Notes: a model not told the origin generated them from the letters alone. 8,256 nucleotides of DNA from a virus (IMGVR_UViG_2531839239_000027), one strand, 5' to 3'. Numbered from the stretch's first letter, positions 1 to 8,256 are shown. A program made the numbers and translations.

Positions 1-1242
1 ATGGCGAGAAAAACACCCCCATTAACCACAGTACAGATCAAAGCAGCCAGACCAGCAGAAAAGGAATACACCCTACAGGACGGCGGAGGGCTTTTTCTCC
101 TGATCAAACCGTCCGGATCAAAACTCTGGAGATTTTCCTACTACCGACCATCGGACAAAAAAAGAATATTGCTGAGTTTTGGATCGCTTGATGATGTTTC
201 CCTGGCTGATGCCAGAAAACGCCGTAGCGAGTACAGGGCGTTAATTCGTGCCGGAACTGACCCGCAGGACCACGAGAGGCAAAAAAGAGAGACAGAGGCC
301 CGAAGACAAGGGAACACGTTCGAAAATGTGGCAACAGCATGGTACCAGGTGAAAATCAGCCAGAATCTGGCCCCCAATACGATTAAAGACATCTGGCGAT
401 CGCTGGAAAAATATGTATTCCCGTTCATCGGCAACACGCCAATAGACACCCTGACCGCTCGCAGGTTTGTTGAGGTGCTTACCCCCATCAAGGAACGTGG
501 CAACCTGGAAACGCTCAAGCGAGTTTTACAGCGTGTAAATGAGGTAATGGATTACGCCGCCAATAGTGGGATGATTGATGCCAATCCGGCTATGAATGTG
601 CGTAAGGCGTTCCCCTCCCCTGTAAAAAAACATATGCCAACAATCCGCCCCGAACAGCTGCCGGAGCTTATGCAGGCTTTATCAGTATCGGCAACAGAAC
701 GGCAGACCAGATTACTGATTGAATGGCAGTTACTGACCGTAACCCGTCCCGTTGAAGCATCGTCGGCACGCTGGGAAGAAATCGACATGGAGGCGCAACG
801 CTGGACCATACCCGCCGGACGCATGAAGATGCGCCGCGACCACGTTATCCCGCTTTGTGACCAGGCTATGGCAGTGCTGGAGGCTATGAAACCAATCAGC
901 CACCACCGCGATTATGTTTTCCCAAGTCTGAAAGACCCACGGCAGCCGATGAACAGCCAGACAGCAAACGCAGCATTACGACGCATGGGGTTCGCTGGCG
1001 TGCTGGTGTCTCATGGATTACGCGCCATATTCAGCACAGCAGCGAACGAGGAAGGATTCGAGCCGGACGTAATCGAGGCGGCACTTGCCCACGTCGACAC
1101 CAACGAAGTCAGACGGGCATACAACCGGAGCAACTACATAGAAAAACGCGTGGTGCTTATGCGCTGGTGGGGCGAATTTGTCGAGGCTGCGGCGACGGGC
1201 GTAACCCTCGCCAGTGGTAAAAGGGGTATCCGAGCCGTTTAG
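1..1242 (+). CDS. int: P4-type tyrosine integrase / site-specific recombinase
   Basis: 413-aa ORF starting at window position 1. N-terminus (LQDGGGLFLLIKPSGSKLWRFSYY...SLADARKRR) fits the arm-binding domain pattern of P4-family integrases. C-terminus has H-x-x-R (HGLRAIF) and the LAHV...RAYNRSNY tyrosine box of tyrosine recombinases. Its promoter and any att site lie outside the window. Confidence 0.9.
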   Translation: MARKTPPLTTVQIKAARPAEKEYTLQDGGGLFLLIKPSGSKLWRFSYYRPSDKKRILLSFGSLDDVSLADARKRRSEYRALIRAGTDPQDHERQKRETEARRQGNTFENVATAWYQVKISQNLAPNTIKDIWRSLEKYVFPFIGNTPIDTLTARRFVEVLTPIKERGNLETLKRVLQRVNEVMDYAANSGMIDANPAMNVRKAFPSPVKKHMPTIRPEQLPELMQALSVSATERQTRLLIEWQLLTVTRPVEASSARWEEIDMEAQRWTIPAGRMKMRRDHVIPLCDQAMAVLEAMKPISHHRDYVFPSLKDPRQPMNSQTANAALRRMGFAGVLVSHGLRAIFSTAANEEGFEPDVIEAALAHVDTNEVRRAYNRSNYIEKRVVLMRWWGEFVEAAATGVTLASGKRGIRAV

Positions 1243-1738: not shown

Positions 1739-1945
1739 ATGGAAGCAATCAAAAAAGTCATCTTTCGCCAGGAAGTAAAAAAACTTATCCATATTAAGGC
1801 AGACAGCACGCTGCAAAGCATGATCAACGCCGGAGAATTCCCGCAGGGTTTTCGTGTCGGTTTGCGCCGTCGCGGATGGTATGAGGAAGACGTAATCGCA
1901 TGGATGAAAGAACGCGAACAAGAAGCGCGCGGAACGACCGCTTAA
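1739..1945 (+). CDS. alpA: AlpA-family phage regulatory protein (excisionase/activator-like DNA-binding protein)
   Basis: 68-aa ORF; motif ...SMINAGEFPQGFRVGLRRRGWYEEDVIAWMKERE matches the AlpA-family pattern (FP.G.r.G.r..gW.e.dv..W). GAGG 10 nt upstream of the ATG. Position just after int is typical of P4-like and PICI elements. Confidence 0.85.
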   Translation: MEAIKKVIFRQEVKKLIHIKADSTLQSMINAGEFPQGFRVGLRRRGWYEEDVIAWMKEREQEARGTTA

Positions 1946-1970
1946 CATATATAGGGCAAATGATGAACAT

Positions 1971-1998
1971 AAAAAAAGCGGCCCCGAAATGGAGCCAC
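1971..1998 (-). terminator. Rho-independent terminator for minus-strand transcription
   Basis: Read on the minus strand: GUGGCUCC-AUUUC-GGGGCCGC (8-bp stem including two G-U pairs, 5-nt loop) followed by U7 (plus-strand A-run 1971-1977). Would stop transcripts from the RHH gene before they run antisense into alpA. Confidence 0.55.
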
Positions 1999-2066
1999 CT
2001 TTCTGAACAATTAACCCGCTGCGCCGTATGTGTCAACAATCATAAGCCTGGGCATGATAACCGCGA

Positions 2067-2270
2067 TCAGGCTGGTGGGCAATTATCTTGCTTGTTGGGG
2101 CCGTATTGTGCTGCCATTTTCATCCGTTCAGAACGTGAATATTTTTTTAGAAACTCATCAAGGACAAAAGCGCATGGTGCGAATCTTTCTGATTCATGCT
2201 CGAGCGCCATATTTTCGTGCTCTCTGTTCGTTTTTTGCGATGGTGTATTGGTTGATTCTTTATTGGTCAT
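2067..2270 (-). CDS. Hypothetical small protein (67 aa; alternative internal ATG at 2210 gives 47 aa); doubtful
   Basis: Only minus-strand ORF between the RHH gene stop (2328) and the minus-strand terminator (1971-1998), so it lies inside that transcript. Weak Shine-Dalgarno, lower-GC region, no recognisable motifs. Could be non-coding. Confidence 0.25.
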   Translation of the reverse strand: MTNKESTNTPSQKTNREHENMALEHESERFAPCAFVLDEFLKKYSRSERMKMAAQYGPNKQDNCPPA

Positions 2271-2327
2271 TGTGTGTACCTGTAAAGCAATGCGCCGTAG
2301 TACCTCACACCACGGCGCTGATAGTGA

Positions 2328-2633
2328 TTATTCTGATTCTTTGGCCTTGCGGCGCTGGAGTTCTTCACGTGCGACAGTGACGAGCTGCCCGATCTCCTCG
2401 GCGGCTTTGATTCCGAGTTTTTCCACCTGCGCCAGTGCATTGAGCGAAGAAATCAGGAGGTTTTCTCCGCTTCCTTCTGCCTGGCGGCGGGCGATTTCAC
2501 CGCGCATGGCGGTTACTATGAATCCGGCGTTGCTTTCACCGTCCAGTTTTACGGATTCCATGCCTTCAATAACATCATGCGGGATCCGAGCTGTCAGTGA
2601 TTGTGATTTTGCGTTTTTTGAACCTGTAGCCAT
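2328..2633 (-). CDS. Ribbon-helix-helix (Arc/CopG/MetJ-like) DNA-binding protein with C-terminal helical extension; putative repressor
   Basis: ORF-track frame 2328..2648 begins at TTG; the ATG at 2633-2631 with GAGAGG Shine-Dalgarno is the likelier start (101 aa). N-terminus KSQSLTARIPHDVIEGMESVKLDGESNAGFIVTAMRGEIARR has the beta-strand/helix/helix layout of RHH regulators. Divergent from the Icd-like-to-rep operon across an operator-rich region. Confidence 0.6.
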   Translation of the reverse strand: MATGSKNAKSQSLTARIPHDVIEGMESVKLDGESNAGFIVTAMRGEIARRQAEGSGENLLISSLNALAQVEKLGIKAAEEIGQLVTVAREELQRRKAKESE

Positions 2634-2654
2634 CTGTAATCCTCTCAATGAAAG

Positions 2655-2749
2655 TGTAAGACAATATACACATAAAAAGTCTTACATAAAAGCATTGACA
2701 TGTAAGCCACCTATAAATAAAGTTACTTACACCTTGTTAATGCAAGGTG
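2655..2749. promoter_or_regulatory. Divergent promoter/operator region: two TGTAAG...CTTACA palindromes, a sigma70-like promoter and a leader inverted repeat
   Basis: IR1 TGTAAGAC-N16-GTCTTACA (2655-2686). -35 TTGACA (2695-2700), 17-bp spacer, -10 TAAAGT (2718-2723), pointing rightward. IR2 TGTAAG-N19-CTTACA (2701-2731) overlaps the spacer and -10. IR3 CACCTTG-N6-CAAGGTG (2730-2749) sits at the predicted start site. A TATATT hexamer on the minus strand within IR1 could be the -10 for the RHH gene. Confidence 0.55.
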
Positions 2750-2829
2750 CAGAAACGACGAAACCCCGCACTGTAGGAGCAGTAACGGGGCTTCTAACCA
2801 CCAACGATAACGAGAGTATCGAGGTAGCT

Positions 2830-3030
2830 ATGAGAAATCATACCACACACCCGCAAGGGCGGGACTCGCACAACCTGAATAAATACATTTGGCGTTTTAT
2901 CGCCCTGAGCACTGCACAACCGCGCGTGATTACCATTGAGGCCACCAGCGAACAGGAAGCACGCCTGCAATCCCCGGCTGGCTGCGTGATGGTATTCGCT
3001 GCCCGTATTCGTCAGGGGGTAGGCTTATGA
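2830..3030 (+). CDS. Small protein resembling host cell-division inhibitor Icd-like proteins of P1/P4-type prophages
   Basis: 66 codons, the C-terminal part of the spurious long ORF 1900..3030. GAGG at 2821-2824, 5 nt before the ATG. Motif YIWRFIALS...TSEQEARLQ...VMVFAARIRQG matches my recollection of the Icd-like pattern (rF.f.a....A..E.aR...lAR.fvL.FAGR); from memory, not searched. Stop overlaps the next start (ATGA at 3027-3030). Confidence 0.45.
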   Translation: MRNHTTHPQGRDSHNLNKYIWRFIALSTAQPRVITIEATSEQEARLQSPAGCVMVFAARIRQGVGL

Positions 3031-3689
3031 GCCAGGAAATCACACTACAACAGGCAGCAGAACGCGCCCACCAAATCGAAGTTATTTGCGCACTGGCAGA
3101 GGATTACCCAAGCATGATGACCGACAGAGAATCAGGGGCAATCATCAGCTTACTTAAACGCCTTAGCGGTGAGGTCTGCGTATTCCTGATCGATGAACAG
3201 GAAAGAAGAACGCTTATTTCTAACGAAAAAAATGCGGAGGGGTACATGTGCAATAAAACCACACCGGACGCAGCCGCCGCGCTCACTACGCTGATGCACG
3301 CACTTATTGATATTGAATGCACGGCAGAGCTTGCGCAGGGAGAAGAACAGAAAGACCGGACACAGTTCGCCCTGGAATGTATCCGATACATCGCAACGCG
3401 GTCGCTGAATGACGCTAAAAATATTCTTGTTGCTGATTGTGAAAATGGGGGGGTTATGCGTGATGATCGTTTTAATTCCCTGAAACAAGAATTTTCCGGC
3501 GTTCCTGATGATGCGGCTGATGCGCTTTCGTCAATGCCAGAACTTATTAGAGCGGCTTTTTTCTTACTTTCCACGAGAGAATATAAATCAACGGGACTTG
3601 ATGTACTGAATATCGCCGCCGATTATGCGGAATATGTGGCAGAGGCGCGTTACAGAAGAAAATTTCCTGAGGATGTAAGCCATGCGTGA
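3027..3689 (+). CDS. Hypothetical protein (220 aa, acidic, predicted helical); function unknown
   Basis: Start overlaps the Icd-like stop; 8-nt overlap with the next ORF (ATGCGTGA at 3682-3689). G-rich Shine-Dalgarno-like stretch upstream. No catalytic or nucleotide-binding motif recognised. Confidence 0.6.
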   Translation: MSQEITLQQAAERAHQIEVICALAEDYPSMMTDRESGAIISLLKRLSGEVCVFLIDEQERRTLISNEKNAEGYMCNKTTPDAAAALTTLMHALIDIECTAELAQGEEQKDRTQFALECIRYIATRSLNDAKNILVADCENGGVMRDDRFNSLKQEFSGVPDDAADALSSMPELIRAAFFLLSTREYKSTGLDVLNIAADYAEYVAEARYRRKFPEDVSHA

Positions 3690-3920: not shown

Positions 3921-4220
3921 ATGAAACTTAAATATTCTGGCTTAACTGCCAGTGGCAACACTCACCCTAAATTTACGCGCGGTGATATTTACCGCGACCA
4001 GTACGGCGGCACGGTAATGATTAAGGGCGTGGCGGGACGGTGCGTAACTTACCGCCGTGAAGGTTACGAATATGATTGCGTGATGCCTGTTTATCAGTTC
4101 CGGCGTGATTTTTCTCTGGTACAGACCGCGCCGCATAACGTGCCCACCAGCAACGCCAGGGCACGGGCAAACATCCAGAAGCTGAAAACCATGATTAACG
4201 GATTCAGGGGCAAGAAATGA
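3921..4220 (+). CDS. Hypothetical protein (99 aa, basic, Gly/Tyr/Arg-rich)
   Basis: GGAG at 3906-3909; stop overlaps the rep start (ATGA at 4217-4220). No recognisable motif. Confidence 0.5.
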   Translation: MKLKYSGLTASGNTHPKFTRGDIYRDQYGGTVMIKGVAGRCVTYRREGYEYDCVMPVYQFRRDFSLVQTAPHNVPTSNARARANIQKLKTMINGFRGKK

Positions 4221-5617
4221 AAAGCGCACCGAACTTAAAAAAACAGCCTTACGACAAGATGACCGAAGTCATCATTTTTGCGGGTAGTGATGCGTGGGCA
4301 CATGCGAAACAGTGGCAGGAACAGGACGGGCGACTGGCTGGCGATAATGTGCCTCCCGTTGTGCTGGCTGATGATCAACTGGATGAACTGGCAGACCTGA
4401 GAATCATCGACGAGGGGCGCTATTGTGTCCGGCTGTACAAGGCAGGCCACATCAGGCCATCAAATATTAATGCCATTGCGCACAAGCTGGCGGCGGCGGG
4501 TGTAACTGATGCGAATTATTACCCCGAAGGGATGCACAGCCAGAAGCGGGAGAACTGGCGCGAATATCTGGAACGGGAGCGGGGGAAAAAGCCAGGGGAA
4601 GAAAAACACCACCAGCGAAAAACCACGCTACCAATGAGCGTGGGATCTGCCGGATACGACACACAACTTGATTACGTGGTTAAGGGGATTATTCCGGCGG
4701 TATCGCTGTGCAGCATATACGGGGCGAGCGGTTCATATAAATCGTTCCTTGCGGGTTCGTGGGCGTGTCACGTTTCCACGGGCCGCCAGTGGGGAGGCCG
4801 CAGGGTGGCGCATGGCGCTGTTCTCTATGTGGTTGGTGAAGGCGGTATCGGCGTTCCGCGTCGTGTAAAAGCCTGGGAGGTTGTGCACGGTGAGCAGGTG
4901 AAAAATCTGTATCTGGTAAACCGTCCCATCTTTCCGGCTGCCCCGCTTGATGTTGAGGAAATGGTTATCGCTGCCCGTCAGGTGGAACGGGAAACGGGTA
5001 AACCGGTTCGAATGATTATTCTGGATACGCTGGCGCGCTGCTTTGGCGGCAATGATGAAAATGATTCCCGTGATATGGGGGCGTTTATCCGTGGGTGTGA
5101 CGAACTGAAACGGCGCACAGGGGCAACGGTGCTGGTGGTTCACCATTCCGGCAAGGATGAAACAAAGGGGGCGCGTGGTTCCAGTGCATTTCGTGCATCA
5201 CTGGACGCCGAATACCGGATACGCAGGGAGGACGCAGGCAGCGAAGCGCTGGTTATCTCATGTACCAAAATGAAGGACGCGGAGGAACTCAAAGAAGCAG
5301 CATATGACTTACGCGTGGTGGAGCTTTTTACCGACGCTGACGGGGAGTTAATCACGTCGCTGGTGGTGGTGGATAAGCCGCGCCCTCCCGTTGAACTGGA
5401 GCGCATCGAGGAGGCAGGGAACAAGACGGAGAATCACGCCGCGCTATGGCAGTGCATCAGAACACGAACAGCACACGGGGAGGCGTGCACTATCGCCCTT
5501 CTCCGCGACGATATGAAAAAGCTGGGGTATGAGATGAAGCACTTCCGGCGCTGGCTGTACAAGCTGGAAAATGATGGCGTAATCGTTATTGACGGTGATG
5601 ACGTGCGCCCGCTGTAA
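4217..5617 (+). CDS. rep: Replication protein: RepA/DnaB-like RecA-fold ATPase (AAA_25-type helicase) with an N-terminal domain of unknown function
   Basis: 466 aa. P-loop region YGASGSYKS, Walker B-like MIILDTLARCF, and LVVHHSGKDETKGARGSSAF matching the RepA-family sensor pattern (vhH.gK....RGssa). Followed immediately by an iteron array. AGGGG Shine-Dalgarno at 4204-4209. Confidence 0.8.
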   Translation: MKSAPNLKKQPYDKMTEVIIFAGSDAWAHAKQWQEQDGRLAGDNVPPVVLADDQLDELADLRIIDEGRYCVRLYKAGHIRPSNINAIAHKLAAAGVTDANYYPEGMHSQKRENWREYLERERGKKPGEEKHHQRKTTLPMSVGSAGYDTQLDYVVKGIIPAVSLCSIYGASGSYKSFLAGSWACHVSTGRQWGGRRVAHGAVLYVVGEGGIGVPRRVKAWEVVHGEQVKNLYLVNRPIFPAAPLDVEEMVIAARQVERETGKPVRMIILDTLARCFGGNDENDSRDMGAFIRGCDELKRRTGATVLVVHHSGKDETKGARGSSAFRASLDAEYRIRREDAGSEALVISCTKMKDAEELKEAAYDLRVVELFTDADGELITSLVVVDKPRPPVELERIEEAGNKTENHAALWQCIRTRTAHGEACTIALLRDDMKKLGYEMKHFRRWLYKLENDGVIVIDGDDVRPL

Positions 5618-5819
5618 AAAGTGGGGAGTAAAAGTGGGGGGAGTGGGGAATTTAACAAAATTGAAACATAATTACCCACTTTCCCACCTGTATATACCCA
5701 AAAAAGTGGGGAGTAAAAAACATATTGAAAAACATAACGTTAGAATCACAAAAAAAAGAGGTGGGGAGACGGTGGGTAATTTCAAAAAGTGGGGAGCAAA
5801 AGTGGGGAGTAGTGGGGAA
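5618..5819. repeat. Iteron array flanking an AT-rich core; putative origin of replication
   Basis: At least 9 direct copies of GTGGGGAG/GTGGGGAA/GTGGGTA at approximately 5621, 5634, 5643, 5706, 5761, 5772, 5789, 5802 and 5812. Inverted copies at 5674-5689 (ACCCACTTTCCCACC). A-rich core 5651-5756 with repeated ATTGAAA(AA)CATAA at about 5659 and 5724. Confidence 0.7.
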
Positions 5820-6064
5820 TGAACAGAAAAACCAGAGATAAGACAGCGCCAAAATATAAAGCGTTAGACATGACAGAGCTTTCCTTAAAGGTGGCAATCA
5901 GAACGATAGACCGCCACGCGGGGGAAGGATACGCGAAGGAGCATCCCGAACTGATAAGCGCATTCATGACCACAGCGGCGGCAAACTTTGCCACGCTGAC
6001 AGAACGGGAGATTGCCGAAGCGGAACAGGTAACAACCATCAACGTTAAAAGCGCTGGAGAATAA
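5819..6064 (+). CDS. Hypothetical protein (81 aa; alternative start at ATG 5870 gives 64 aa)
   Basis: ORF begins inside the last iteron and ends 19 nt before a strong terminator. GGGGAG 9 nt upstream of the 5819 ATG. No recognised motif. Confidence 0.4.
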   Translation: MNRKTRDKTAPKYKALDMTELSLKVAIRTIDRHAGEGYAKEHPELISAFMTTAAANFATLTEREIAEAEQVTTINVKSAGE

Positions 6065-6082
6065 CCGAAGAAGTGAGCACAT

Positions 6083-6107
6083 AGCCGGAGCAATCCGGCT
6101 TTTTTTC
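6083..6107 (+). terminator. Rho-independent terminator
   Basis: Stem AGCCGGA (6083-6089), loop GCAA, stem TCCGGCT (6094-6100), then T-run 6100-6106. Confidence 0.7.
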
Positions 6108-6194
6108 GATCTCATATATCTTCAAAGATGGTTAATTAATGATAATCTATCGAAAATACTGGTTATGCAATGATAAGTATCAGGAGAAAACAAA

Positions 6195-6389
6195 GTGGAA
6201 GAGATAAAGCAAAGCGCTACCGTGATGATTGATCATGAAATCCTTAACGAGCTTAAAAAGTTGCAGTTCGATATTGTGCGCCGGATGAATGAATCAGGTA
6301 TCTACGGCAGGGCGGCAACACCAACAATAGGGCATCTTGCGCGCGTACTGTTACGCGAACGCCTGGGCATTGCAACAAGTGAGGCGTAA
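6195..6389 (+). CDS. Hypothetical small protein (64 aa, GTG start), possibly a small DNA-binding protein
   Basis: Strong Shine-Dalgarno AGGAG (6182-6186) 8 nt before the GTG. First gene after the terminator and an AT-rich promoter-like region (6110-6180; GATAAT at 6141-6146). N-terminal beta-strand then helices (ATVMIDHEILNELKKL...) suggests an RHH-like fold; speculative. Confidence 0.45.
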   Translation: MEEIKQSATVMIDHEILNELKKLQFDIVRRMNESGIYGRAATPTIGHLARVLLRERLGIATSEA

Positions 6390-6392
6390 ACA

Positions 6393-6554
6393 ATGGCTAT
6401 CACAGAACGCGAGGCAAGCATCATTAAAGCCATTGGCGAGGAAACAAGAGACACCATAGCGCCATTGATGGAAAAGATCGCAGAGCTTGAGACACGAATA
6501 AACAAGCTGAGTGATGAAGTTGAAGGCCTGATCTCGTTACTCGGTGAGCAATGA
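6393..6554 (+). CDS. Hypothetical small helical protein (53 aa); not in the supplied ORF track
   Basis: Hand translation: MAITEREASIIKAIGEETRDTIAPLMEKIAELETRINKLSDEVEGLISLLGEQ. GAGG at 6381-6384, 8 nt before the ATG, which is 3 nt after the upstream stop. Heptad-like pattern. Confidence 0.4.
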   Translation: MAITEREASIIKAIGEETRDTIAPLMEKIAELETRINKLSDEVEGLISLLGEQ

Positions 6555-6640
6555 CAGGGGGGGAGTGTTCCGGCCGGAAAGTCGATCGCCCTGGACACCG
6601 CCCCCAGTCTCATTCATAGAAAATTTTGCTTTTCAAAAAA

Positions 6641-6660
6641 GTTACACGAAAAGTTACACC
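6641..6660 (+). repeat. Two direct GTTACAC(C) repeats 12 bp apart, immediately upstream of terS
   Basis: GTTACAC at 6641-6647 and GTTACACC at 6653-6660, each preceded by an A-run. Same motif and 12-bp spacing as the array inside terS. Confidence 0.5.
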
Positions 6661-6681
6661 CCCTCAAAACGAGGTTTTTGC

Positions 6682-7170
6682 ATGGCATTAACGACCAAAA
6701 AAAAGCGGTTTGCTGATGCGTTATCAAAGGGCACAAATCCAACGGAAGCCGCGATACATGCGGGATACAGCGAAAAGACTGCAAGGGTTAAAGGCTGGCA
6801 GCTATCCAATGATCCGGAGGTGAAAAAGTATCTTAAGGCTGTAACTTCTGATGTAACTTTTCAGGTTACAAAACCGAAAAAAGTTACAAAGAAAGTTACC
6901 GAAAAAGTTACACCGGAACGGGCATCAATTAACACCATTGAGATGATGGATAACGGCCTACCCGACCCCATCAAAGCAATGGGCAGGATACTGATTGACA
7001 ACATGGACACAGATCCAAAACTGGCTTTAGATGCCGCGTTTAAGCTGGCCCAGTTCACCCACCGCAAGATCGGCAGCATTGGGAAAAAAGAGGTTAAAAA
7101 ACTCAATGCCGCTAATGTCTCCTCAAATCGGTTCCCCATCCCTAAGCCACCAACTGGCTTAAAACACTGA
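6682..7170 (+). CDS. terS: Phage terminase small subunit (Terminase_2/P27-like N-terminal HTH)
   Basis: N-terminus MALTTKKKRFADALSKGTNPTEAAIHAGYSEKTARVKGWQLSNDPEVKKYL matches the TerS pattern (KQ.lF...Y...GNaT.AAi.AGYS.KTA...G..Ll.n..V..yi). ORF-track frame opens at 6544, but the ATG at 6682 with GAGG at 6671-6674 is the likely start. 162 aa from that start. Confidence 0.75.
   Translation: MALTTKKKRFADALSKGTNPTEAAIHAGYSEKTARVKGWQLSNDPEVKKYLKAVTSDVTFQVTKPKKVTKKVTEKVTPERASINTIEMMDNGLPDPIKAMGRILIDNMDTDPKLALDAAFKLAQFTHRKIGSIGKKEVKKLNAANVSSNRFPIPKPPTGLKH
6841..6914 (+). repeat. 12-bp-periodic array of GTTAC/GTAAC pentamers inside terS
   Basis: GTAAC at 6841 and 6853; GTTACA at 6865; GTTACA at 6883; GTTACC at 6895; GTTACACC at 6907. 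Spacings of 12 bp except one 18-bp gap. Encodes the low-complexity stretch VTSDVTFQVTKPKKVTKKVTEKVT. Confidence 0.55.
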
Positions 7171-7181
7171 GGTAGCGAACT

Positions 7182-7343
7182 ATGAGCGAATACATCACAG
7201 ACCCTATTGATGTACTCACGGAAATCATGAACGACAAGCAGCAGCCAACCGAAATACGGTTACAGGCTGCCGCTGTTCTGATGCCATATTTTCACGAAAC
7301 CCTAACCCCATGTTACCAGGAGGAAGAAGATAATGATTTCTAA
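7182..7343 (+). CDS. Hypothetical small protein (53 aa); not in the supplied ORF track
   Basis: Hand translation: MSEYITDPIDVLTEIMNDKQQPTEIRLQAAAVLMPYFHETLTPCYQEEEDNDF. GAGG at 7169-7172; begins 11 nt after the terS stop and overlaps the next start by 11 nt. Confidence 0.4.
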   Translation: MSEYITDPIDVLTEIMNDKQQPTEIRLQAAAVLMPYFHETLTPCYQEEEDNDF

Positions 7344-8256
7344 AAACATGAAAGGCGTGTCGGCAGTTCGCGCCGCCAGCGTGCTTACATCGTGTAAATT
7401 CAGCCATGCAGACGCAATTGAAATGACGAAAAAAAATGATCCGGCAGTATCGAAATTTCTTGAAAAATCCATTGTTGCCGGAATGACTACGGATAATATG
7501 CCGTCGCTGGTGGCAGAGCCGATAGTAAGAGAGCTTGGCGAGTATATTTTTTCGCAGTCTGTACCAGGCAAGCTAATCAGCAGCGCGCTGAATCTTCCGT
7601 TTGGCGCAAAATTGCAGTCAATATCAGGCAAGGGTAGTAAATGGCTTAAAGAAGCCGAAGAAATCCCTGTCAAAGAGGGAGAAGTAAACGAAAGTGCGCT
7701 AAAACTGTGCAAACTTGGCGCTATTGTGATGCTGAATAACGAGCTAATCAAATTTAGCACCCCTGGTACCAATTCAGCGATCAGAGACTTGATCACATCG
7801 GAATCGGTGAAAGAAATAGATAAAAAATTTCTTTCCAGTGACCAGGAGGTGGCGGGCGTATCCCCTGAGGGCGTGCTTAATGGTGCTGATGAGGCCGAAA
7901 ACTTCATAGAGCTTTTCAAAAAGCACATAGCGAACGGTAACACGCTTGCCACGTCGTCGCTAATCTTGCCCGTAGAAAACGCCTTACAGCTTACTGATGC
8001 TGAGTTCTGGCAGATAGAGCTTTTGAGAATACCGGTAATTGTGAGCGAACAGGCGGATCGCATGATGCTGATAGACGCTCAAAAGCTGATTATTAACGTT
8101 GAAGCCACGGTTATAACCCCAACTGATGAGGCGGTAATAAAAACCGAATCAGGGACGGTTAGCCTTTTCCAGAATGACGCTACAGCGTTCAGGGCAATCA
8201 CCTATTGCGGATGGCAAAAACTCGATAAGGCCGTCACCGTTCTGGCGAAAAGCTGA
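7333..8256 (+). CDS. HK97-fold phage major capsid protein-like (no N-terminal scaffold/delta domain)
   Basis: 307 aa, complete (stop at 8254-8256). GGAGG at 7318-7322. Segments SPEGVLNGADEAENF and ATSSLILPVENALQLTDAEF line up by eye with the HK97 gp5 segments EGQLLNGDGTGDNLEGL and ASGIVLNPRDWHNIALLKD. Alignment is from memory and unverified. Confidence 0.6.
   Translation: MISKNMKGVSAVRAASVLTSCKFSHADAIEMTKKNDPAVSKFLEKSIVAGMTTDNMPSLVAEPIVRELGEYIFSQSVPGKLISSALNLPFGAKLQSISGKGSKWLKEAEEIPVKEGEVNESALKLCKLGAIVMLNNELIKFSTPGTNSAIRDLITSESVKEIDKKFLSSDQEVAGVSPEGVLNGADEAENFIELFKKHIANGNTLATSSLILPVENALQLTDAEFWQIELLRIPVIVSEQADRMMLIDAQKLIINVEATVITPTDEAVIKTESGTVSLFQNDATAFRAITYCGWQKLDKAVTVLAKS

Follow-up and report, generated by a model that had tools for sequence, protein, structure and literature searches.

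A probable iteron-type replication origin immediately downstream of rep in the E. coli phage satellite island EcCI11368.1, with repeats that covary with the Rep C-terminal domain

We analyzed an 8,256-nt stretch of DNA (the window) and conclude that its positions 5618-5819 are very probably the vegetative replication origin of a PICI of the EcCI11368.1 type at tRNA-Pro/yejM. These 202 nt form the gap between the TAA stop codon of rep (5615-5617) and the ATG of the next open reading frame (5819). The gap carries no annotation; the gene of a 'helicase RepA family protein' precedes it and a hypothetical gene follows, and the value for annotation is that it can be read as a PICI origin. Through such an origin a phage satellite is able to amplify after induction, and the matching of Rep and ori types decides which satellites co-exist or cross-activate in one cell. 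The origin is of a known kind and the island is already catalogued, so that the known picture is unchanged.

The preliminary description of this DNA had proposed an iteron-type origin immediately 3' of rep with a SaPI- or PICI-like layout. That proposal is supported by three observations: the island is a catalogued PICI, the layout agrees with that published for E. coli PICI origins, and the repeats co-evolve with the Rep C-terminus across 76 scorable loci. PMC6092414 describes E. coli PICI origins as lying directly 3' of rep, with an AT-rich region between two sets of iterons. Judged by its sequence, the segment agrees with Gram-negative PICI origins in its element type, its position, its two iteron sets around an AT-rich region and its Rep-matched repeats.

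The island and its rep-ori cassette

The window is PICI EcCI11368.1, a small E. coli phage satellite island. All 202 nt of 5618-5819 are identical in O26:H11 strain 11368, for which Table S1 of PMC6092414 (Fillol-Salom et al. 2018) gives the 8.5-kb PICI EcCI11368.1 at this site, and the EcCI11368.1 locus encodes the same Rep accession as the window, WP_000833625.1 (RefSeq name 'helicase RepA family protein'). In complete E. coli genomes the same DNA adjoins tRNA-Pro, between yejM and yejO. Genes for an integrase, an AlpA-like HTH protein, Rep, TerS and a capsid protein lie on the plus strand, with the capsid gene (Pfam/PHROG) downstream of rep-ori. At 4217-4220 the first bases of rep are also the last bases of the DUF4222 gene. 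The genes and coding features are as follows.

1-1242, plus strand: tyrosine integrase (Pfam/PHROG)
1739-1945, plus strand: AlpA-like excisionase/regulator with HTH (Pfam/PHROG)
3921-4220: DUF4222 protein (Pfam/PHROG)
4217-5617, plus strand: rep, a 466-aa initiator-helicase with an N-terminal domain, a RepA/AAA_25 RecA-fold core and a predicted C-terminal winged helix (Pfam, PHROG, RefSeq)
4217-4591, plus strand: Rep N-terminal domain, residues 1-125, modular (65% identity to the N-terminus of EcCICFT073 Pri-Rep)
5429-5614, plus strand: Rep C-terminal winged-helix domain, residues 405-466, predicted to bind iterons (AF2 model, Foldseek)
5540-5542, plus strand: codon of His442, directly before recognition helix 443-452, covarying with the fourth iteron base (72 of 73 loci with at least three cores)
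5819-6064, plus strand: conserved small ORF, 81 aa, PHROG 1231 (5.8e-48), the downstream border of an exchangeable rep-ori cassette (77% identity to the EcCICFT073 homologue, which follows an unrelated rep-ori)
6083-6100, plus strand: terminator-like hairpin and T-run after the small ORF (terminator scan)
6682-7170, plus strand: small terminase subunit gene terS, about 0.9 kb downstream of the array (Pfam/PHROG and RefSeq)

Between 1900 and 3689 the window can be read as two ORFs, 1900-3030 (376 aa) and 3027-3689 (220 aa), neither of which had a Pfam match. For this segment the RefSeq annotation of a 99.9%-identical strain has short genes instead, among them two minus-strand genes, for YlcI/YnfO and for a hypothetical protein, together with an Icd-like protein that corresponds to only the last 66 codons of ORF 1900-3030; sister strains carry Icd-like and ash pseudogenes there. 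At the other end, the packaging module (6544-8256 in the window; 10757-11224 in locus L089) ends after terS and one capsid gene, and yejO follows about 470 nt later.

The 8.5-kb island lacks terL, portal and protease genes, and it is therefore unable to build its own capsids or to be a full capsid-forming PICI. An island that ends so soon after its capsid gene, and whose sister copies carry the pseudogenes mentioned above, might be decayed, and the array would then be an inactive remnant, origin sequence that has no current function. We consider this very improbable. The rep gene is intact, WP_000833625.1 is annotated in 4/4 related records examined, all 11 iteron cores are retained and the same array occurs in full-size PICIs. 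In addition, a 321-nt query (5560-5880, in which rep contributes just its final 58 nt next to the origin) matched 320 of 5426 complete E. coli genomes, in each case on the chromosome, and 171 of these genomes at 99% identity or more. The copy in the window is presumably active as an origin; being part of a short island (8.5 kb) with an incomplete packaging module it could be a never-induced remnant, but its rep is intact.

Comparison of related islands indicated to which gene the array belongs. In islands whose Rep is of the primase type (EcCICFT073) or the DUF927 type (L090), rep-ori again lies between the DUF4222 gene and the PHROG 1231 gene, and their iterons differ with the type of Rep, being GGTAGAC in the former and TGCGGGTTA in the latter. 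Conversely, L007 retains the GTGGGG array though a different gene follows, and L007 and L008 have the Rep C-terminal domain and the iterons in common while their downstream genes are different. Since the arrays track Rep across changing neighbors, the repeats belong to rep, and not to the downstream genes or to terS.

These observations also bear on the possibility that the repeats are a pac site recognized by the small terminase of the island. The terS gene is close by, and an array in which a central region separates two clusters of short repeats has a superficial resemblance to some pac sites; in the pac site of phage P1, short repeats flank the cleavage site. We give next to no credence to this possibility, as the rep stop codon is in every case the point where the array begins and the array sequence goes with a C-terminal residue of Rep in the 76 scorable loci described below, and as L007 and L008 keep the Rep C-terminal domain and the iterons despite their different downstream genes. 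Moreover, the equivalent array of EcCICFT073 is an experimentally shown origin, in an island in which no terS is annotated.

Layout of the iteron array

Read as an origin, 5618-5819 consists of short repeats arranged around AT-rich DNA. The exact heptamer GTGGGGA occurs eight times in the 8256-nt window, seven of them within 5621-5818, against an expectation of 0.73 for the whole window, and eight copies were reached in 0/200 shuffles. When the GTGGG core was counted on both strands, 11 copies were found in 5618-5819, compared with 0.33 expected from the rate in the rest of the window (Poisson P of about 8e-14). Nine of these cores are direct and two are inverted, and the best iteron copies read AAAGTGGGGAG. 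The repeat unit measures 8-11 nt and the spacing inside the clusters is 9-13 nt. The features of the segment are given below; the numbers in brackets are the core positions.

5618-5650, plus strand: left iteron cluster with three direct copies (5621, 5634, 5643; repeat search, core counts)
5651-5671, no strand: AT-rich spacer, 14% GC, holding ATTGAAACATAA (base composition)
5672-5689, minus strand: two inverted iterons (5675, 5683) that form the left dyad arm (repeat search)
5690-5696, no strand: GTATATA dyad center, a candidate site of melting nucleation (comparison, 64 of 78 loci)
5703-5713, plus strand: central direct iteron AAAGTGGGGAG (5706) that forms the right dyad arm (repeat search, comparison)
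5714-5758, no strand: A-rich 45 nt, 20% GC, holding ATTGAAAAACATAA, a probable DNA-unwinding element (composition; AT-rich or variable in relatives)
5759-5779, plus strand: two inner right iterons (5761, 5772; repeat search)
5788-5819, plus strand: right iteron cluster with three direct copies (5789, 5802, 5812), its last base being the A of the next ATG (repeat search)

The first iteron begins at 5618, directly after the rep stop codon. Six cores (5621-5710) lie to the left of the A-rich stretch 5714-5758 and five (5761-5816) to its right, and the outer parts of the array are themselves related, with 45-nt blocks at 5616-5660 and 5784-5828 forming direct repeats of 78% identity. The inverted arms 5675-5682 and 5703-5710 are 8 nt long and 100% complementary. 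Nine or more iterons in two clusters, an A-rich core between them and inverted half-sites had all been noticed in the preliminary description, and the counts and coordinates given here bear them out. The cores nearest to 5714-5758 are both direct; around the GTATATA center those on the left (5675 and 5683) are inverted and that on the right (5706) is direct. We considered a cruciform or hairpin at the dyad 5675-5710 and rejected it, since single-stranded folding was no better than that of shuffled sequences (z = -0.96); the arms were therefore read as two opposed protein sites, not as structure.

A repeated ATTGAAA(AA)CATAA motif had also been reported. Both copies are present, ATTGAAACATAA at 5661-5672 and ATTGAAAAACATAA at 5724-5737, but a functional role for them does not stand. 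The motif is not conserved beyond close E. coli relatives, which keep only the TGAAA..CA part of the second copy, and we dropped it as a functional element. A search for DnaA boxes (TTATCCACA with at most two mismatches) gave 17 matches compared with 22.5 expected, that is, no enrichment, and the two near-matches inside the origin are iteron variants. No Rfam family matched anywhere in the window.

The same order of elements recurs in the relatives. In all those examined, and for every intact array, the array starts at most 3 nt from the rep stop codon; its elements are, in order, two to four direct iterons, a spacer, one or two inverted iterons, the sequence (G/A/C)TATA(T/C)(A/G), one direct iteron, about 45 nt that are AT-rich or variable, one or two further iterons, two or three direct iterons and the next gene. 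In 64/78 loci, (G/A/C)TATA(T/C)(A/G) was found 48-83 nt after the rep stop codon between inverted iteron arms of at least 6 nt, and in these loci the arms vary with the iteron type while the TATA-type center is constant. The window counterpart is the dyad 5675-5710 with GTATATA at 5690-5696.

A separate sequence, CAnTACTGGnnTG, often preceded by CTGAAA, was seen in the central origin of L002 (EcCICFT073; 6447-6459), of L035, L036 and L039 (around 3620) and of L084 (3685-3697). It spans different iterons and Rep types (the primase type of EcCICFT073 and four RepA-type loci), is absent from the window and might be a shared host-factor site.

Rep domains and the match between Rep and its iterons

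Rep residues 147-315 matched Pfam AAA_25 (2.6e-43), and the full-length protein matched PHROG 2850. In a sequence search of solved structures Rep gave only a weak match, to RSF1010 RepA (1g8y, E = 0.013), and its C-terminal domain gave none; an NCBIfam search returned only sub-threshold RadA matches. The full-length model was of low confidence (pLDDT 65) and was kept out of the fold search, and the C-terminal domain was modeled alone. In the AF2 model of the last 76 residues (pLDDT 87), three helices are followed by a beta hairpin (H-H-H-beta-beta), and residue 442 is at the N-terminal end of the third, recognition helix (443-452). The top Foldseek matches of this domain were all winged-helix DNA binders (DtxR, LexA, Fur, histone H1 and the ORC/MCM WHD), with probabilities of 0.9-0.99 and TM scores of about 0.6-0.8; E-values were weak (at least 0.04) for this small domain.

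The N-terminal domain models as a compact alpha/beta domain (pLDDT 75-90). Among RepA-type Reps the N-terminal 125 aa occur as two alleles, one in the window and L006 and the other in L004 and L005, and these do not follow the iteron type. The Pri-Rep of EcCICFT073 has the same N-terminal domain (65% identity) with GGTAGAC iterons. A domain that is shared between proteins with different iterons cannot set specificity, and by alignment of the Rep proteins it is the C-terminal 60 aa that follow the iteron type. Thus, the specificity signal would lie in the C-terminal winged helix, the predicted binding domain. An EMSA with the N-terminal domain, as suggested earlier, would employ the wrong part of the protein, since its alleles do not track iteron type and the same domain is found on a GGTAGAC-type Pri-Rep; because the C-terminal domain carries the specificity signal, it is the proper EMSA target.

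In many other genera (L010-L028, L050-L069 and others), the open frame for the homologous helicase and winged helix is 680-730 aa long when counted back to the previous in-frame stop codon, and the 466-aa E. coli Rep is the short version of this protein.

A scan of one genome per species yielded 80 loci, from Enterobacterales and from two Oceanospirillales-type genomes (Oceanospirillaceae and Ca. Njordibacter). We scored 76 loci with an intact C-terminus, comprising 70 from the scan, the E. coli variants L004-L008 and the window, by comparing residue X of the Rep motif K-X-F-x-R-W-L with the fourth base of GTG-N-G cores within 320 nt downstream of rep. Asn occurred with A in 24/26 loci, His with G in 12/15, Lys with G in 27/28 and Ser with C in 7/7, and the loci outside these counts had fewer than three cores. 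With a slightly relaxed core and loci with at least three cores, the rule (His or Lys with GTGGG, Asn with GTGAG, Ser with GTGCG) holds in 72/73.

Residue and base switch together inside three clusters in which the helicase cores are at least 90% identical. One is the E. coli cluster, with His/G versus Asn/A, and two are of Kluyvera/Kosakonia type, with His/G versus Ser/C; Asn/A recurs in the distant Xenorhabdus, Gilliamella and Oceanospirillaceae lineages. Because of the switches inside three clusters, the covariation is not one inherited event. The RepA-type rep-ori variants in E. coli are 72-93% identical across the origin, and in L005, L006 and L091 all iterons, including the inverted one, are GTGAGG and not GTGGGG, a concerted change. 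L091 had been held out: its iterons were read first (GTGAGG), the Rep C-terminus was then translated, and the prediction was confirmed. Its recognition helix reads MKNFRRWLYKLE, compared with MKHFRRWLYKLE in the window, and the sole difference in the helix is H442N.

We see an even chance that, in a widespread family of Enterobacterales satellite initiators with a RecA-fold helicase and a C-terminal winged helix, Rep-ori specificity depends for the most part on a single residue where the recognition helix begins, following a code of His/Lys-G, Asn-A and Ser-C, and that the TATATA-centered iteron dyad is a conserved site of helicase self-loading. If this is true, single changes such as H442N, together with a concerted change of about 11 iterons, would give rise to new, mutually compatible replicon types, and the residue/base rule and the TATATA dyad would offer a handle on how fused helicase-initiators recognize and open their origins. 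A literature search of incomplete coverage found no paper on the residue/base code or the TATATA dyad; both the one-residue/one-base rule and the TATATA-centered dyad in RecA-fold helicase-initiators are possibly new, and both are modest.

As a side observation, L091 (11188-11595, in a classical PICI of E. coli O157:H7 at roxA-phoQ) is a natural specificity swap in which several GTGAGG-type copies are degenerate.

Transcription, proposed mechanism and related systems

The start codon of the small ORF at 5819-5821 is identical to the RefSeq start, and PHROG 1231 aligned from residue 1. This start had been placed inside the last iteron. The A of the ATG is the last base of the 8-nt GTGGGGAA (5812-5819), but the overlap amounts to 1 nt, leaves the GTGGG core untouched and is not a conserved feature, the ORF start of L005 and L006 lying 12 nt further on. 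The link between origin and gene expression that had been drawn from it is unsupported beyond a Shine-Dalgarno-like GGAG, which the purine-rich iterons supply 10 nt before the ATG. A sigma-70 scan of 5400-6300 found no promoter-like site, and none inside the origin, and neither a promoter nor a terminator was found between rep and ORF 5819-6064. These data suggest that rep, the origin and the small ORF form one transcription unit and that the origin is transcribed within the rep operon.

An array in this position could act mainly as a Rep operator in transcriptional control, with bound Rep blocking read-through into the small ORF and the packaging genes, or with Rep being titrated by the repeats. 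Its location inside the transcription unit, with a terminator only at 6083-6100, agrees with such a role, as does the GGAG that the last iterons provide before the ATG. The covariation fits any Rep-binding function: it proves co-evolution with the Rep C-terminus rather than replication, and would be expected equally of a pure Rep operator. Nevertheless, we hold a mainly regulatory array to be quite unlikely. An identical layout is required for replication in EcCICFT073 and in SaPIs, a conserved TATATA dyad and an AT-rich stretch between opposed sites would be features of an origin and not of an operator, and the distance between the last iteron and the ATG varies among relatives. The two roles are not mutually exclusive, and given the functional data for EcCICFT073 and SaPIs a purely regulatory Rep operator appears less likely than an origin.

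For the array as an origin, we propose the following mechanism. Rep would combine, in a single polypeptide, a hexameric helicase of the RepA type (RecA fold) and a C-terminal winged helix. After induction, the winged helices would bind the approximately 11 AAAGTGGGGAG iterons, with residue 442 reading the fourth base of the core. The iterons on either side of the TATATA dyad (5675-5710) and of the 45-nt stretch of 20% GC (5714-5758) would bring two Rep assemblies together, AT-rich DNA would be melted and the helicase would load itself, as has been proposed for SaPI Rep. The GTATATA center (5690-5696) and 5714-5758 are both candidates for the site of melting.

A likeness to iteron plasmids, which the preliminary description had also put forward, is a loose one. 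The oriV of plasmids of the pSC101, R6K, RK2, F and P1 type has a Rep_3 initiator with two winged helices, iterons of 17-22 bp and DnaA boxes. The window has units of 8-11 nt, DnaA boxes that are not enriched and a RepA-type helicase fusion; in Pfam its Rep matched only AAA_25 and not Rep_3. An iteron-plasmid oriV was ruled out on these grounds. As to IncQ plasmids, the helicase core of the window Rep is homologous to RSF1010 RepA (AAA_25; the 1g8y match noted above). In IncQ plasmids a separate RepC binds the oriV iterons, which are of about 20 bp, whereas the window Rep unites helicase and DNA-binding domain in one protein, and its iterons measure 8-11 nt.

Among enterobacterial satellites, phage P4 encodes alpha, a multidomain primase-helicase-initiator whose C-terminal domain binds octamer-type repeats. 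The alpha helicase belongs to SF3, and the P4 origin has two parts, ori and crr, separated by kilobases. P4 is discussed as a precedent in PMC6092414, which describes PICI Pri-Rep proteins as only distantly related to P4 alpha.

Functional data exist for EcCICFT073. According to PMC6092414, its rep-ori, in tests with pKO3-blue, maintains a temperature-sensitive plasmid only when rep and ori are both intact, and the functional test reported there is limited to the EcCICFT073 origin, which has a different Rep allele from that of the window. The two islands belong to the same element family and have in common an origin that directly follows rep, an AT-rich region with a set of iterons on either side, a DUF4222 gene upstream and a PHROG 1231 ORF downstream (77% identical). 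They differ in that the EcCICFT073 Rep, a 584-aa 'DNA primase family' protein, shares only its N-terminal 125 aa with the window Rep, and in that its iterons are GGTAGAC and those of the window GTGGGG. EcCIEDL933, a cf-PICI, was considered as an experimentally replicating close relative and set aside, since the O157:H7 match L091 is a classical PICI at roxA-phoQ and not the cf-PICI.

In mechanism there is a parallel with the SaPIs. In PMC9371898, the C-terminal winged helix of SaPI Rep is described as binding 6-12 iterons right after rep (citing Ubeda et al. 2007), SaPI origins as having an AT-rich center and iterons that include oppositely oriented copies, and SaPI Reps as self-loading helicases (Rep1/PriRep5 cryo-EM). 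The window shares with them a helicase-initiator with a predicted C-terminal winged helix, short iterons directly after the rep ORF, an AT-rich center and no known separate helicase loader; its iterons are opposed around the GTATATA center, and those nearest to 5714-5758 are direct on both sides. The SaPIs differ in their Gram-positive host and in the transcriptional arrangement of the islands. SaPI Reps are AAA+ helicases (placed in the SF3/MCM groups by PMC9371898), whereas the window Rep has a RecA-fold RepA/AAA_25 core, and no sequence homology between the window Rep and SaPI Reps was detected. By analogy, the window origin would work like a SaPI origin, driven by a Rep that falls outside the SaPI Rep family.
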